A DNA stretch of 64,000 bases from the NCBI GenBank assembly GCA_044359815.1, contig JBIKLL010000002.1, positions 64,001 to 128,000 of the forward strand, in the 5' to 3' direction. The stretch comes from Pseudobdellovibrionaceae bacterium. Lineage in GTDB: Bacteria; Bdellovibrionota; Bdellovibrionia; Bdellovibrionales; Bdellovibrionaceae. Positions 1,026-52,928 of the stretch are shown here, one piece after another. The stretch's first letter is position 1. Every line of letters begins with the position of its first letter. The notes under the pieces are model-generated. The model was not told the DNA's origin, made no database searches, and saw nothing but the letters and a program-made list of their open reading frames with translations. Position numbers and translations under genes: made by a program.

Positions 1026-3071
1026 ATGAGTAAAAGTAAAGAGAAACCATCTGAAAAATCAATATCTTCAGATATCATAAATAAACACGAAGAATTAAAA
1101 AAACTTATTAGGGAACACGATTATAATTATCATGTCCTGGATAAGCCGATGATTTCTGATTATGCCTTTGATCAATTATTTCAAGAATTGCTGGAACTGG
1201 AAACCAATAATCCAGGATTAGGTTTAATGGATTCGCCTTCTCAAAGGATTGGTAGCCAACCATTGGAAGCCTTTAATAAGGTTGAACACCGCACCCCAAT
1301 GTTGAGTCTGTCAAACAGCTATTCCCCAGAGGAAATTTTAAAGTTTGATGAAAGGGTGAAAGCTTTTTTGAAATCCGAAGAGCCCCTTCAGTATTATTGT
1401 GAACCCAAGTTTGATGGTTTAGCTTTGGAACTGGTTTACGAAGAAGGCTTGCTGGTCAGAGCCCTTACCAGAGGTGATGGCAATGTTGGTGAGGACGTCA
1501 CTCTGAATGTAAAGACCATCAGAACTATCCCACTGGTACTGAATATGAAAACTGCACCGAAGCTTTTTGAAGTACGTGGTGAAGCTCTGATGTTCAAAGA
1601 AGATTTTAAAGAACTGAATGAGTCCCAAGAAGAGCTAGGTCTGCAAATATTTGCCAACCCCCGAAATGCAGCGGCTGGTACTATACGCCAATTAGATTCA
1701 GCCATCACTGCCAGCCGACCATTGAAGTTTTTTGCTTACGCTATTGGGGTTACTGATGATTTGAATTTTAAATCACAGATGGATTTAGGGGAATTTTTTC
1801 TGAAGGCTGGGCTTCCTGTTGTCGAGAAATTTAAAAATCAAAAGCTCAGAATGATTTGCAATGGGCCCACAGAAGTTATCGAATTCTATCACTCCATAGA
1901 AAAAATTCGTGAATCCCTGCCGTTTGAAATCGACGGAGTTGTTGTTAAGGTTAACAGTCTAAGGCTGCAAGACGACCTGGGGTTGGTAGCCAGAAGCCCC
2001 AGATGGGCAACAGCTGCAAAATACAAACCGGCTGAAGCCAGAACAGTGATTGAATCCATTGATGTTCAAGTCGGTCGTACAGGAACGCTAACACCCGTTG
2101 CCGTTATGAAGCCTGTGAAAGTTGGCGGGGTCACTATAACGAATGCGACTCTGCATAACCAAGAAGAAATTGATCGCAAAGATGTTAGGGTCGGGGACGC
2201 CGTTATTGTTCATCGAGCGGGTGATGTTATCCCAGAAGTTGTGTCTGTGATTTTGTCTGAACGTCCGAAAAATTCTACTCCCTTTAAGCTTCCCAACCAT
2301 TGCCCGGTTTGCGGCGAAAAGGCGGTGCGGTTCGAGGAAGAAGTGGCTCTTAGGTGCGTGAATTCAACCTGTCCTGCGATTTTAAAAGAATCGTTGAAAC
2401 ATTTTGTGTCCAGAAGGGCCATGAACATAGACAAGGTTGGAGACAGATTGATTGAAACTTTGGTTGATCAAAAACTGGTGAAATGTTTTTCTGATTTATA
2501 TAAATTAAAATCAGATCAACTGTTGGCCCTGGATCGTCAGGGTGAAAAATCCGTTCAGAATGTTTTGTCCAGCATCAAAAAAAGCCAGCAGACACAGTTA
2601 TCACGGTTTATCCATGCACTAGGTATACGTTTTGTTGGCGAACAAACTGCAAAATTATTGGCTGCACATTATGGGACCATGGATGAGTTTTTAGGATCTA
2701 CCGAGGAAGAATTATTGAAAGTTCCCGAGGTCGGACCAAAAGTTGCCAAGGCCATTTTGGATTGGATTAGAAATCCCAAAAATAAAAAAGAAGTTAACGA
2801 GCTTTTAATAAGCGGTGTTAAAATCATCACTGTTTCCAAAAAGCAGGATGGTCCTTTTAATGGAAAAAGTTTTTTGATCACTGGAACCTTACCCGTTAAA
2901 CGAGATGAAGCTCAGGATTGGATTGAAAAAAATGGTGGAAAAATCTTGAGCTCTGTTTCATCAAAGCTAGATTTCTTAGTGGTCGGAGACGATCCGGGCT
3001 CTAAGTTAATTAAAGCCCAGTCTTTAGGTTTAAAAATTATTTCTTGGGATGAACTGAAAAAAATGATCTAG
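1026..3071 (+). CDS. ligA: NAD-dependent DNA ligase
   Basis: KFDG adenylation motif, TRGDG, NPRNAAAG, zinc finger CPVC...C..C, HhH repeats and C-terminal BRCT. Start placed at ATG 1026. Confidence 0.97.
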   Translation: MSKSKEKPSEKSISSDIINKHEELKKLIREHDYNYHVLDKPMISDYAFDQLFQELLELETNNPGLGLMDSPSQRIGSQPLEAFNKVEHRTPMLSLSNSYSPEEILKFDERVKAFLKSEEPLQYYCEPKFDGLALELVYEEGLLVRALTRGDGNVGEDVTLNVKTIRTIPLVLNMKTAPKLFEVRGEALMFKEDFKELNESQEELGLQIFANPRNAAAGTIRQLDSAITASRPLKFFAYAIGVTDDLNFKSQMDLGEFFLKAGLPVVEKFKNQKLRMICNGPTEVIEFYHSIEKIRESLPFEIDGVVVKVNSLRLQDDLGLVARSPRWATAAKYKPAEARTVIESIDVQVGRTGTLTPVAVMKPVKVGGVTITNATLHNQEEIDRKDVRVGDAVIVHRAGDVIPEVVSVILSERPKNSTPFKLPNHCPVCGEKAVRFEEEVALRCVNSTCPAILKESLKHFVSRRAMNIDKVGDRLIETLVDQKLVKCFSDLYKLKSDQLLALDRQGEKSVQNVLSSIKKSQQTQLSRFIHALGIRFVGEQTAKLLAAHYGTMDEFLGSTEEELLKVPEVGPKVAKAILDWIRNPKNKKEVNELLISGVKIITVSKKQDGPFNGKSFLITGTLPVKRDEAQDWIEKNGGKILSSVSSKLDFLVVGDDPGSKLIKAQSLGLKIISWDELKKMI

Positions 3072-3262
3072 ATATGATCAATATTGATATCGCGAGCCAT
3101 AACGGTTTTACGTCCGTCTTCTTTGGCATTATCGATACCTTTTGAGCAAAGTGCTTCGATTGCTTTGCTGAGTACATCAATAGTCTCAGATGATGTATTC
3201 ATTGAGCCTTTTTCTTTGATGTATTTCTTAACTTTACTTGTCACAACTAATACGTCAGCCAT
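3068..3262 (-). CDS. Bacterial histone-fold DNA-binding protein (Bd0055/HBb type)
   Basis: 64 aa, MADVLVVTSKVKKYIKEKGSMNTS...GRKTVMARD, with the RKTV-x-x-x-D histone L2/alpha3 motif. Strong RBS AAGGAGGA. Confidence 0.92.
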   Translation of the reverse strand: MADVLVVTSKVKKYIKEKGSMNTSSETIDVLSKAIEALCSKGIDNAKEDGRKTVMARDINIDHI

Positions 3263-3354
3263 GTTTCCTCCTTATGTCCAGGCGCCTGATGGTTTTTAAA
3301 ACCATTTCCACAAAAGGTTGTCACAACACGCTTATATTTACAATGGGATTCAAT

Positions 3355-4824
3355 TTAACGGGTTTTGCGCTCTGAGCTAGACTTCTTTCTGGGCTTACCA
3401 AGAGACCCAAAAGACTTTTCTCCATCAAAAATTTGAAGCGACGCCCTGCGCTGATTGTTGTCGCCAGGCTCAATCCACACAAAAGTTTTTGAATCGATCA
3501 TTTTTGTGCATTCAACGTCAGTAAAAGCCGGCGACCAAGTGCCGCTGTTCAAATGTTCAACTGCCCCAATCATTTCATGTCGTGATTTATGTGTGTGCCC
3601 GTAAACAATTCTGTTCACTTTTGTGATCGTGCCAGCCATTGATAATATTCGTTCATCGGGCTCTTTGTATGAAGACACCATCGACACTACAGATTTCGAA
3701 TAAAACAGAAAAAACGGCAACAGTATAAACAATGGGATAAATGCCCAAAAAAATGGTAAATCAAAAAAATTCTGAGCAAAAAGCATCAACTGAAAGATCA
3801 CAAAAAATCCAATAAAAATCAAAAAAGCCCTATCAAGCCACAACTCCCGAGCAATCATAAAAGGATTGTTGGTGGCCGGTTCAACAAAGAGTTCCTTAAG
3901 TTCCCTAACCATTCTGGGCTCTGCATTTGATTTGTGAGCAATATAATTAATTTTATCTTCGATCTTCAATGGATCACGAATAGGGGAATTCCATTTCTCG
4001 GTGAAGCCTTTCATTAGGGTGACCACGGCTCCAAAAAACCAATCCCATATTAACAATGGCTGAGCCCGCCAAATATATTTAATAAAGAATGCGACGTATT
4101 CGCCCAAACTCATAATGTAATTTGAATCCACATGGGGATTAAAAAATCCCATGCCGTTTAAAATATACCTGCAAGCCAAATTTCCAAAGGGCAGTCTGAT
4201 AGATTTAAAATTATAGCCTCGTATAAAGGGATGCACTGGATCTTCGCAAATACAATAAGGGTCGTATTGATTGCCATGTTCAATCAAAGTGTCTTTGTTA
4301 CTAATATAAAACCATTCGCAAAATCTGACTCTGGATTTTTCTTTCTCTTTCAAATCCAATGCATTGACTATGGATTCCTGAACTTCTGAATAATGTAGCT
4401 CAAGATCGTGATTGCCAAAAACAAAGACCAGTTTATGGCCTCGTTTTACAAAATCACTAAGAGCTTTAAACCAAATCGGATGATCTTTGATAATTGCATC
4501 AATCTTGTATTTTGAGCGCTCAGGGCGTGGATACAGTCCACGAATTTGTTCAAGCCATGTTACCCTAAAGGTCGGATGTTCCGGTATTGTGGTAATGGAA
4601 TCAAAATCAAAAATGTCTCCATTTAATATTAGTTCGATGGGATCAGTGCCAGCGCGTTTTTCCAGATGAAATAAAAAATCGCTGAAGGCCTGATCAAAGA
4701 AAAAATCCGCGGATTTATATTTCTTCCACAATGGAAACTTAGGATTCAGAGGTTCTGCCTCACATAAATGCAGATCGCTGACTATTGCTGTGAAATCTGC
4801 CTTAAGAAATTCATTGTGGGCCAT
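3355..4824 (-). CDS. Calcineurin-like metallophosphoesterase with an inserted transmembrane hairpin
   Basis: Motifs SDLH, NGDIFD, GNHD, EHG and GHTH; two hydrophobic helices before the last motif. Start is uncertain (4824 or 4833). Confidence 0.8.
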   Translation of the reverse strand: MAHNEFLKADFTAIVSDLHLCEAEPLNPKFPLWKKYKSADFFFDQAFSDFLFHLEKRAGTDPIELILNGDIFDFDSITTIPEHPTFRVTWLEQIRGLYPRPERSKYKIDAIIKDHPIWFKALSDFVKRGHKLVFVFGNHDLELHYSEVQESIVNALDLKEKEKSRVRFCEWFYISNKDTLIEHGNQYDPYCICEDPVHPFIRGYNFKSIRLPFGNLACRYILNGMGFFNPHVDSNYIMSLGEYVAFFIKYIWRAQPLLIWDWFFGAVVTLMKGFTEKWNSPIRDPLKIEDKINYIAHKSNAEPRMVRELKELFVEPATNNPFMIARELWLDRAFLIFIGFFVIFQLMLFAQNFFDLPFFWAFIPLFILLPFFLFYSKSVVSMVSSYKEPDERILSMAGTITKVNRIVYGHTHKSRHEMIGAVEHLNSGTWSPAFTDVECTKMIDSKTFVWIEPGDNNQRRASLQIFDGEKSFGSLGKPRKKSSSERKTR

Positions 4825-51314: not shown

Positions 51315-51500
51315 ACTCCTATACTATATTATATAAATATCTAGTAGTTGTAGTAGGAGCGTGGAAAACCTGTCAAACAACTTAAATACCTGAAAACAGT
51401 TCCTTTTAATTGTGGAATAACCTCTTAGATCTGGTGATCAGTTATCCACATTTTTTCTGTTAAAAGTTATCCCCTTTTTTATACCCCGGTTATCCACGCC
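51315..51500. other. Chromosomal replication origin oriC (dnaA-dnaN intergenic)
   Basis: Perfect DnaA box TTATCCACA at 51442-51450; variants at 51490, 51467, 51411(-) and 51360(-). DnaA-trio run TAGTAGTTGTAGTAG at 51342-51356; AT-rich tract at 51321-51340. Confidence 0.88.
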
Positions 51501-51518: not shown

Positions 51519-52928
51519 TCACACCCCTGTGATATTGTGGATTCTGGTCACTAACTCTTCGATATCATTCTTAATACTTAAATCTTTTGCCTGTAGATGT
51601 TCGACCCGCTCAATGGCATTCATAACAGTCGTGTGGTCTTTGCCCCCAAAGGCTTTACCTATATCTACCAGGGATTTATCTAAATGCCGCTTAATCAAGT
51701 ACATAGCAATTTGTCTTGGTACCACTATTTGCTTTGCCCTGGCTGTTGATTTTAAATCCATGACTCGAATTTTAAAGTGGTCAGACACCAGTTTTTGGAT
51801 ATCCTCCAAAGAAATGGTCGTTTGAGTATCATGGTGAGCGAGTACTCGCCTAGTCAACTCAATATCAATGGTTAAACCTTGAAGTTCACTGAACATTTTC
51901 ACTTTTTTAATATTGCCTTCAAGCTCTCGGATTGATCTTTTGGATATCCTGGCTATGTAGTGAGCAACCTCATCAGGTAGCTTTAAGCCGACTTTTTCTG
52001 ATTTGTAACGTAATATGGCTAGTCTGGTTTCAATGTCGGGCATTGAAATATCTGCGATCAAACCCCATTCCAAACGACTTCTGCTGCGGTCCTCAAGACC
52101 GTTGATGTCTTTTGGCATTCGATCACTGGCAACCACTACTTGTTTTTTATGTTCAAAAAATGAATTTAAAGTATGGAAAAACTCTTCCTGAGTGGCTTCT
52201 CCGCGTCCAATATACTGCACATCGTCAACTAAAAGGATGTCAGAATTCTCTCTATATCTTGATCTGAATTTATCCATTTCATGGCGACGTATTGCGGAAA
52301 CACATTCGTTCAGAAAATCAGCAGCCAAAATGTAGTTGATCCTTAGATGAGGAAAATTTGACTTAATGTGATTACCCACCGCATGCAAAAGATGGGTTTT
52401 ACCCATTCCAACAGGACCGCAAATAAACAAGGGATTATAGCCCTCAGACCCAGGGTTTTGAGCAACATTAAATGAGGCTGCATGTGCAAACTCAGTGTTT
52501 TTACCCACTACAAATGTTGAAAAAGTATAGTCTGAGTTCAGTTCTTTTGCGTTTTTTATTACCTGATAGGAGGGCATTGCTTGTTGTTGAACAACGGGTT
52601 GAGAAGGCCTCAAATCAATGGTTTGTTCAAAACTGATCTGTGGATCATTGGAAATCAGGTTTTTAAGCTGAGAAACTACGATATCGACTTCAAAATCTTT
52701 GCGATAAATATCTGAAATTTCTCCATAAATTTTATCCAGAAGGTTTTCCACAACAAAATATTGGTGTAGCGAACTGGGTACCCCAAGAATCATTTTAGAT
52801 GATTGTTGATTCTGAACCGTTTCTAAAAATTTAATCGGTTCAATCCAAGTTTCGACTAACTTGTTGTCTTTATTTCTGTTTTTGATCCGATCTTTGATTT
52901 GTCCCCAAAGATCAGCGTTGAGCTCCAC
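51519..52928 (-). CDS. dnaA: Chromosomal replication initiator DnaA
   Basis: YNPLFICGPVGMGKTHL, LLVDDVQ, QEEFFHTLN, RELEG and GGKDHTTV motifs. Confidence 0.98.
   Translation of the reverse strand: MELNADLWGQIKDRIKNRNKDNKLVETWIEPIKFLETVQNQQSSKMILGVPSSLHQYFVVENLLDKIYGEISDIYRKDFEVDIVVSQLKNLISNDPQISFEQTIDLRPSQPVVQQQAMPSYQVIKNAKELNSDYTFSTFVVGKNTEFAHAASFNVAQNPGSEGYNPLFICGPVGMGKTHLLHAVGNHIKSNFPHLRINYILAADFLNECVSAIRRHEMDKFRSRYRENSDILLVDDVQYIGRGEATQEEFFHTLNSFFEHKKQVVVASDRMPKDINGLEDRSRSRLEWGLIADISMPDIETRLAILRYKSEKVGLKLPDEVAHYIARISKRSIRELEGNIKKVKMFSELQGLTIDIELTRRVLAHHDTQTTISLEDIQKLVSDHFKIRVMDLKSTARAKQIVVPRQIAMYLIKRHLDKSLVDIGKAFGGKDHTTVMNAIERVEHLQAKDLSIKNDIEELVTRIHNITGV

Follow-up and report, generated by a model that had tools for sequence, protein, structure and literature searches.

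An HBb/Bd0055-type histone gene convergent with ligA and near dnaA in an uncultured freshwater relative of Bdellovibrio

The histone gene and its reading frame

The window analysed here is a stretch of 64,000 nucleotides (contig JBIKLL010000002.1, positions 64,001 to 128,000; assembly GCA_044359815.1) from a Pseudobdellovibrionaceae bacterium, an uncultured freshwater relative of Bdellovibrio. The G+C content is about 40% in the host and 39.5% in the window. On the minus strand the window contains an open reading frame (ORF) of 64 codons with an ATG start, which encodes a histone and converges on ligA, the gene of the NAD-dependent DNA ligase (Table 1). This gene is very probably the positional ortholog of HBb (Bd0055) of Bdellovibrio bacteriovorus, and its product a nucleoid dimer alongside HU/IHF-family proteins.

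An earlier note on this DNA had described a tail-less three-helix protein of 64 amino acids, a strong ribosome-binding site and a convergence on ligA with overlapping stop codons, and all of these features were found in the window. Most of the related loci displayed have a GGAGG-type site where the Shine-Dalgarno sequence stands in the window. The tetranucleotide CTAG at 3068-3071 contains both stops, TAG at 3070-3068 on the minus strand for the histone gene and TAG at 3069-3071 on the plus strand for ligA, with two bases common to the two. The plus-strand ORF was identified as LigA by the NCBIfam model NF005932 (841.6 bits, cut-off 369); this ORF is open from position 939 on, and its match to the family sets in at residue 49. 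The string GRKTVMARD, read earlier as the end of the histone, is present in the protein, where six residues (INIDHI) come after it.

Table 1. Features of the histone locus, dnaA, and two further histone-fold genes of the same genome
Feature	Position	Strand	Evidence or remark
ligA (NAD-dependent DNA ligase)	1026..3071 (start tentative)	+	NF005932; convergent on histone gene, overlapping stops
Weak terminator-like hairpin with T-run	2949..2968	-	Consensus match; about 100 nt past the histone stop, in the 3' end of ligA
HBb/Bd0055-type histone gene, 64 aa (alpha3-truncated, 'bacterial dimer')	3068..3262, stop codon included	-	ORF, PDB match, fold, dN/dS
Shine-Dalgarno sequence AAGGAGGA	3266..3273	-	Followed by AAC, then ATG
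Perfect inverted repeat ATGGTTTT-A-AAAACCAT (8+8)	3289..3305	-	In the presumed 5' leader, between promoter-like element and ribosome-binding site
Promoter-like element TTGTAA-N17-CAACCT, TG at the extended -10 place	3315..3343	-	52 nt upstream of ATG; putative function
Calcineurin-like phosphoesterase gene, 547 aa	3355..4998	-	PF00149; directly upstream of histone gene, 92-nt gap
dnaA, marks the origin region	51519..52928	-	TIGR00362, 466 bits
158-aa protein, Cys/His-rich N-terminal half and C-terminal histone fold	contig C51:1927-2403 (L002:1198-1674)	+	Fold 56% identical to the HBb ortholog
Face-to-face (FtF)-like singlet, 65-73 aa	contig C99:38489-38710 (L003:1456-1677)	+	37% identical to the HBb ortholog

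Relationship to HBb of B. bacteriovorus

A phmmer search against all PDB chains returned 8FVX and 8FW7 (E 1.4e-28) and 8CMP, 9EZZ and 9F0E (E 1.6e-28) as best matches, all of them over the full 64 residues. According to their Foldseek entry titles, these five entries represent histone HBb of B. bacteriovorus. In the alignment with HBb/Bd0055, proposed as a check in the earlier note, 52 of the 64 residues were identical (81%) over the full length, which confirms the closeness of the two proteins stated there. The 12 substitutions are D3, Y14, S20, S25, A37, S40, I43, D44, N45, E48, N60 and I64, with the locus of B. bacteriovorus strain Bd5 (L063) as reference, whose product is identical to the PDB chain. 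The net charge of the window protein is +1, while the commonest value in the family is +2. In the same search the archaeal histones HMfA and HMfB were matched at E 0.03-0.1.

For comparison at the level of loci, one genome per species was scanned. Of the 282 relatives that it found, the best 80 entered the locus counts; almost all of these are named as Bdellovibrio, Pseudobdellovibrionaceae, Bdellovibrionales or similar. Their products are exactly 64 amino acids long in 80 of 80 loci and 78-86% identical to the window protein, and 32 positions are invariant among the 80. Between the window gene and these loci, the median proportions of nonsynonymous (pN) and synonymous (pS) differences were 0.119 and 0.731, and the median dN/dS was 0.075 over 46 of the 80 pairs, the other 34 having saturated dS. 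The match to solved structures, the fixed length and the low dN/dS confirm that the observation is real and far beyond chance. A frame of only 64 codons that touches ligA might have arisen by chance, or it might be non-coding DNA antisense to the end of ligA; these same three results rule this out, and the overlap with ligA amounts to merely 3 bases, so that such an origin carries next to no probability.

The residues E48, S40 and S20 were considered as features unique to the window protein. They occur in none of the 80 genome loci, but in 6, 9 and 5 of 112 database relatives, respectively, and are therefore ordinary variation. The family has already been described, with structures, and the window gene is an ordinary member that shows no departure from it.

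General annotation models hardly recognise the protein, in line with the earlier expectation that this family is easily missed by annotation. The Pfam family PF00808 (CBFD_NFYB_HMF) was passed by 0.3 bits (21.7 against a cut-off of 21.4), and the NCBIfam histone model was not reached (29.8 bits, cut-off 50). Because the latter fails its cut-off, the NCBI names displayed for the relatives read 'hypothetical protein'.

Fold, predicted dimer and conserved residues

The AlphaFold2 (AF2) monomer model, based on an alignment of 114 rows, had a mean pLDDT (predicted local distance difference test) of 85.9. DSSP assigned helices to residues 8-19 and 25-48 and a one-turn helix to residues 56-58 of the model, with no tails. 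The predicted structure is thus a histone fold with the shortened alpha2 and the short alpha3 (3-4 residues) that characterise the HBb type. A Foldseek comparison with the PDB, another of the proposed checks, placed HBb entries in all five top positions (TM score 0.79-0.88, root-mean-square deviation 1.4-1.7 Å). HTkC and HLp came next with TM scores of 0.71-0.72, followed by archaeal and eukaryotic histones with 0.45-0.63.

When two copies were submitted, as had also been proposed, a handshake homodimer was predicted with a pair score of 0.88, compared to 0.00 for the best of three controls; since the HBb dimer is solved, the prediction indicates likeness and may be recall. In calibration, the mark for a pair was reached by 20 of 30 solved one-chain pairs and by 1 of 23 solved single chains, counts that hold only roughly because a custom alignment was used. 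The runs agreed in 100% of the contacts, the pLDDT of the partner was at least 91, and the contacts were those of a handshake: L1 (residues 22-24) faces L2 of the partner (residues 53-54), and residues 31, 35 and 38 meet across alpha2.

All DNA-contact residues named for HBb in published work are kept in the window protein (K12, T23, S24, K52, T53, R57, T8, S9 and K10). The same is true of the clamp formed by R51 and D58 together with D49, and of V11, L31, I35, L38 and I59 in the core (PMC11317129). Residues T8, S9, K10, K12, K13 and K16 recur in 80 of 80 relatives, and D49, G50, R51, K52, T53, V54 and D58 are invariant across the 80 loci. The last group includes the histone motif RKTV-x-x-x-D that the earlier note had pointed out (R51-K52-T53-V54 with D58). 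Position 25 is serine in the window protein and in 10 of the 80 loci, and alanine in HBb.

The conserved contacts bear on the question whether the protein works on DNA in general. The best Pfam family, CBFD_NFYB_HMF, takes in transcription factors, and Schwab et al. warn that prokaryotic histone folds need not all organise genomes (PMC11390915), so that a specific regulator or a protein-protein adaptor of the NF-Y/TAF type could be considered. Such a non-chromatin role appears very improbable: the residues by which HBb contacts the DNA backbone are all kept, HBb itself binds genome-wide without a motif and is enriched in the nucleoid (PMC11317129, PMC10627809), and no partner histone-fold gene adjoins the window histone.

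The residues responsible for tetramerisation in other histones were missing. The window protein has E48, N45 and I61 where the exchanges A48H, S45F and I61L were introduced to create a tetramer of Bd0055 and caused it to bring DNA ends together (PMC10627809). The positions used by FtF histones for tetramer formation (R48 and N52 of the hidden Markov model logo, 6 and 2 residues ahead of the arginine in RKT; PMC11390915) hold N45 and D49, and the archaeal His49 is likewise absent (E48). The 'bacterial dimer' category is defined by sequence clustering (PMC11390915), and the window protein clusters with Bd0055/HBb. It has the sequence and fold characteristics of this category and is therefore a member; it lacks those of the wrapping histones, as it has none of the residues required for the archaeal and eukaryotic four-helix bundle and DNA wrapping, and its alpha3 makes only one turn.

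Among the related proteins, the FtF histones HLp (Leptospira perolatii, 9QT0-2) and HTkC (Thermococcus kodakarensis, 9F2C) share the alpha3-truncated fold and the RKT-type L2 loop with the window protein, at 39% identity, and differ in their tetramerisation via R48 and N52. HMfA and HMfB resemble it in their handshake dimer, RD clamp and KT loop. Their own features are a longer alpha2, a three-turn alpha3, a four-helix bundle based on His49 and the wrapping of DNA in hypernucleosomes; the TM score to the window model was only 0.50-0.54. Owing to the common fold and RKT...D loop, one might ask whether the window protein also wraps DNA in tetramers or hypernucleosome-like particles and so forms nucleosome-type chromatin. 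The step would be small, because Bd0055 with three exchanges acquires the ability to wrap DNA in vitro (PMC10627809). However, the window protein carries E, N and I where wrapping needed H, F and L, the FtF residues before the RKT loop are replaced, and its alpha3 is predicted as a single turn. According to passages of the same study, wild-type Bd0055 gave neither a DNA-end Förster resonance energy transfer (FRET) signal nor a micrococcal nuclease (MNase) ladder (PMC10627809). We therefore consider wrapping very unlikely.

Gene neighbourhood and distance to the origin

The assignment as positional ortholog is based on the neighbours of the gene and on its place in the chromosome. A convergent ligA lies downstream in 72 of the 80 loci, with a stop-to-stop gap of 87 nt in the median and 1 nt at minimum; in some of the 8 loci that gave no ligA hit, little DNA is available downstream. 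The overlapping stops in the window are the tight extreme of this conserved convergent pair. Upstream, a phosphoesterase gene stands on the same strand in 63 of the 80 loci, in 60 of them at a distance of at most 400 nt, and murD follows beyond it. B. bacteriovorus has the same neighbours, with the phosphoesterase gene upstream and ligA in convergent orientation, and the same distance from dnaA.

The phosphoesterase of the window (PF00149, 29 bits; cut-off 21.5) has a hydrophobic C-terminal part and no NCBIfam name, yet it is a conserved neighbour of the histone gene.

The origin region is marked by dnaA, dnaN, recF and gyrB, which succeed each other on the minus strand. A perfect DnaA box, TTATCCACA, is located at 51442-51450 in the spacer between dnaA and dnaN, with a neighbouring box at 51490. 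A total of 30 matches to the box with at most one mismatch were counted, compared to a mean of 17.7 in shuffled sequences, 1 of 100 of which reached 30; only the perfect box and its neighbour were used. The cumulative GC skew has its minimum at 52-54 kb of the window. The place of dnaA, the DnaA box and the skew minimum together place the histone gene at a distance of some 48-49 kb from the origin region. Measured from the AAA+ domain of dnaA the distance is 48.8 kb, and the gene is transcribed away from the origin. In five of five complete chromosomes checked, the distance between histone gene and dnaA was 47.5, 47.5, 51.2, 48.9 and 38.9 kb, and the location 'near the origin' given in the earlier note thus holds. 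Makowski et al. (2016) reportedly mapped the origin of B. bacteriovorus close to dnaA. A statement on an origin-proximal position or a dosage effect of Bd0055 was not found in the passages of PMC10627809, PMC11318664 and 10.1101/2025.09.24.678257.

Putative expression signals

The element upstream of the histone gene (3343-3315) may be interpreted as a -35 box followed by a spacer with the TG extension and by a -10-like box in which A2 and T6 are kept. On this reading the transcript would begin some 45 nt ahead of the ATG, just past 3315. In 41 of 81 upstream regions a promoter-like motif, TTGTCA-N12-TATGCAAACCTTTT or a variant of it, precedes the histone ATG by 20-72 nt; apart from A2 and T6, its -10-like hexamer does not resemble TATAAT. 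The core of the motif, T[AG]TGNNA[ACT][CG][CG]T, was present in 41 of the 81 regions, whereas 200 shuffles gave 1.08 on average and 5 at most; this count is descriptive only because the pattern was derived by eye from the same sequences. Downstream of the gene, a scan for terminator-like structures found one site, with 0.5 expected. This hairpin (2968-2949) is a possible histone terminator.

Proposed role in the nucleoid

HBb has been studied through crystal structures with and without DNA, proteomics, deletion attempts and a phyletic survey. [quoted passage not shown] It is one abundant nucleoid protein among several in B. bacteriovorus (PMC10627809, PMC11390915), and DAP-seq (DNA affinity purification sequencing) revealed no sequence specificity (PMC11317129). 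Its binding mode has been described as filament formation (PMC10627809) and as bending (PMC11317129).

By analogy, the window protein would pair via the antiparallel alpha2 handshake of a histone fold with short alpha2 and one-turn alpha3, as the model suggests. The first turn of alpha1 (T8, S9, K10) would form the central DNA site, and binding would occur without sequence specificity. As the archaeal tetramer residues are missing, the dimers would not stack into nucleosome-like particles; they might bend DNA as single dimers or form, at high density, a filament that coats straight DNA, a point on which the published in vitro work is divided. The strong ribosome-binding site and the conserved promoter-like element could ensure a high supply of the protein, and the conserved origin-proximal place, co-oriented with replication, might raise the gene dosage during multi-round replication. 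The histone would then be one abundant nucleoid protein beside HU/IHF, not the sole basis of chromatin. Its proposed action, as a small basic dimer that bends DNA without sequence preference, is that of the HU/IHF proteins (PF00216), the conventional DNA-bending proteins of bacteria (PMC11390915). Their fold is unrelated to the histone fold, and four genes of this family coexist with the histone gene in the genome. The statement in the earlier note that the organism has histone-based chromatin is overstated because of these four HU/IHF genes; two further histone-fold genes are present as well.

Several points weigh against the interpretation as a highly expressed, HBb-like nucleoid dimer. DNA binding, abundance and essentiality are carried over from the 81% identical Bd0055, whose in vivo function was itself called unknown in a passage of a 2025 preprint (10.1101/2025.09.24.678257), and the filament and bending modes are unreconciled in vivo (PMC10627809, PMC11317129). 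The histone models score marginally in Pfam and below the cut-off in NCBIfam, and the dimer may have been predicted from recall of the solved HBb structure. Regarding expression, the promoter-like motif, defined post hoc, is missing by pattern in 40 of the 81 loci, and a standard sigma-70 scan of positions 2800-3600 returned 0 promoter-like sites, with 1.4 expected. Contigs from RNA libraries cover the region, each as a small share of its library: a 156-nt contig of X23 matches 3121-3276 with 0 differences, a 164-nt contig of X24 matches 3084-3244 with 2 differences, and a 259-nt contig of X22 extends over the upstream part (3295-3543). These contigs, two of them within the histone gene, do not show transcription, its level or its strand and were not used as evidence. 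The argument from origin distance to gene dosage is one that we infer.

The discovery value of the gene is low, as it is an ortholog at the same locus within the same bacterial family. Its value lies in correct annotation, because the NCBI histone model scores under its cut-off and the relatives are named 'hypothetical protein'. The locus adds a further data point on the rigid upkeep of length, sequence, neighbours and origin distance in this family.

Distribution and other histones of the genome

The earlier note had called the family rare. Within the phylum this does not apply: a match at E<=1e-10 was obtained in 323 of 401 sampled genomes, including 53 of 53 in the same family, although among distant families some of these matches may be other histone types. 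Hocher et al. reported a homologue in 67% of Bdellovibrionota genomes (PMC10627809). A search of the protein database retrieved 752 clusters at E<=0.001.

The two further histone-fold genes of the genome are located on contigs C51 and C99. The 158-aa protein of contig C51 has 53-55% full-length identity to genes of three complete genomes of a Bdellovibrio-like genus (g4), and we regard it as the 'ZZ histone' of the Bd3044 type described in PMC11390915. Pfam finds no ZZ domain in it, the best matches being zf-FLZ (E 0.03) and IBR_1 (E 0.34); the label therefore rests on the full-length identity to the genus g4 proteins and on the description in that paper.

The singlet of contig C99 has HLp of L. 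perolatii as its best solved relative (E 1.1e-8) and carries R and N at both FtF tetramer positions. Its family comprises 640 clusters at E<=1e-5, from metagenomes. A close relative (59% identity) was present in only 1 of 60 other genomes of the bacterial family searched; the other hits in these 60 genomes were cross-matches to HBb or ZZ genes. No synteny was found around the gene between its own locus (L089) and that of its one close relative (L090). The G+C content of contig C99 is 38.2%, compared to 39.5% in the window, and its membership in the same organism is unproven.

Of the whole analysis, only the co-occurrence of three different histone types in this genome might repay more work. 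Two further readings are conceivable, albeit unlikely on present grounds. In the first, the lineage would run a mixed histone system of HBb-type dimer, zinc-finger histone and FtF-like singlet, in which histones that bend or coat DNA and histones that wrap it could act on one bacterial chromosome. In the second, separate from the first, the supply of histone could be coupled to replication dosage through the fixed distance of 39-51 kb from dnaA, the co-orientation with replication and the promoter-like motif.

A lake metagenome that contains the window locus (run X4) also yielded a 151-nt contig which differs from the window at 6 positions over 3198-3263, the 5' end of the histone gene, and is unlike it in the flanks. 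The finding points to a second, related Bdellovibrio-like population in that water, which would have an HBb gene of its own.

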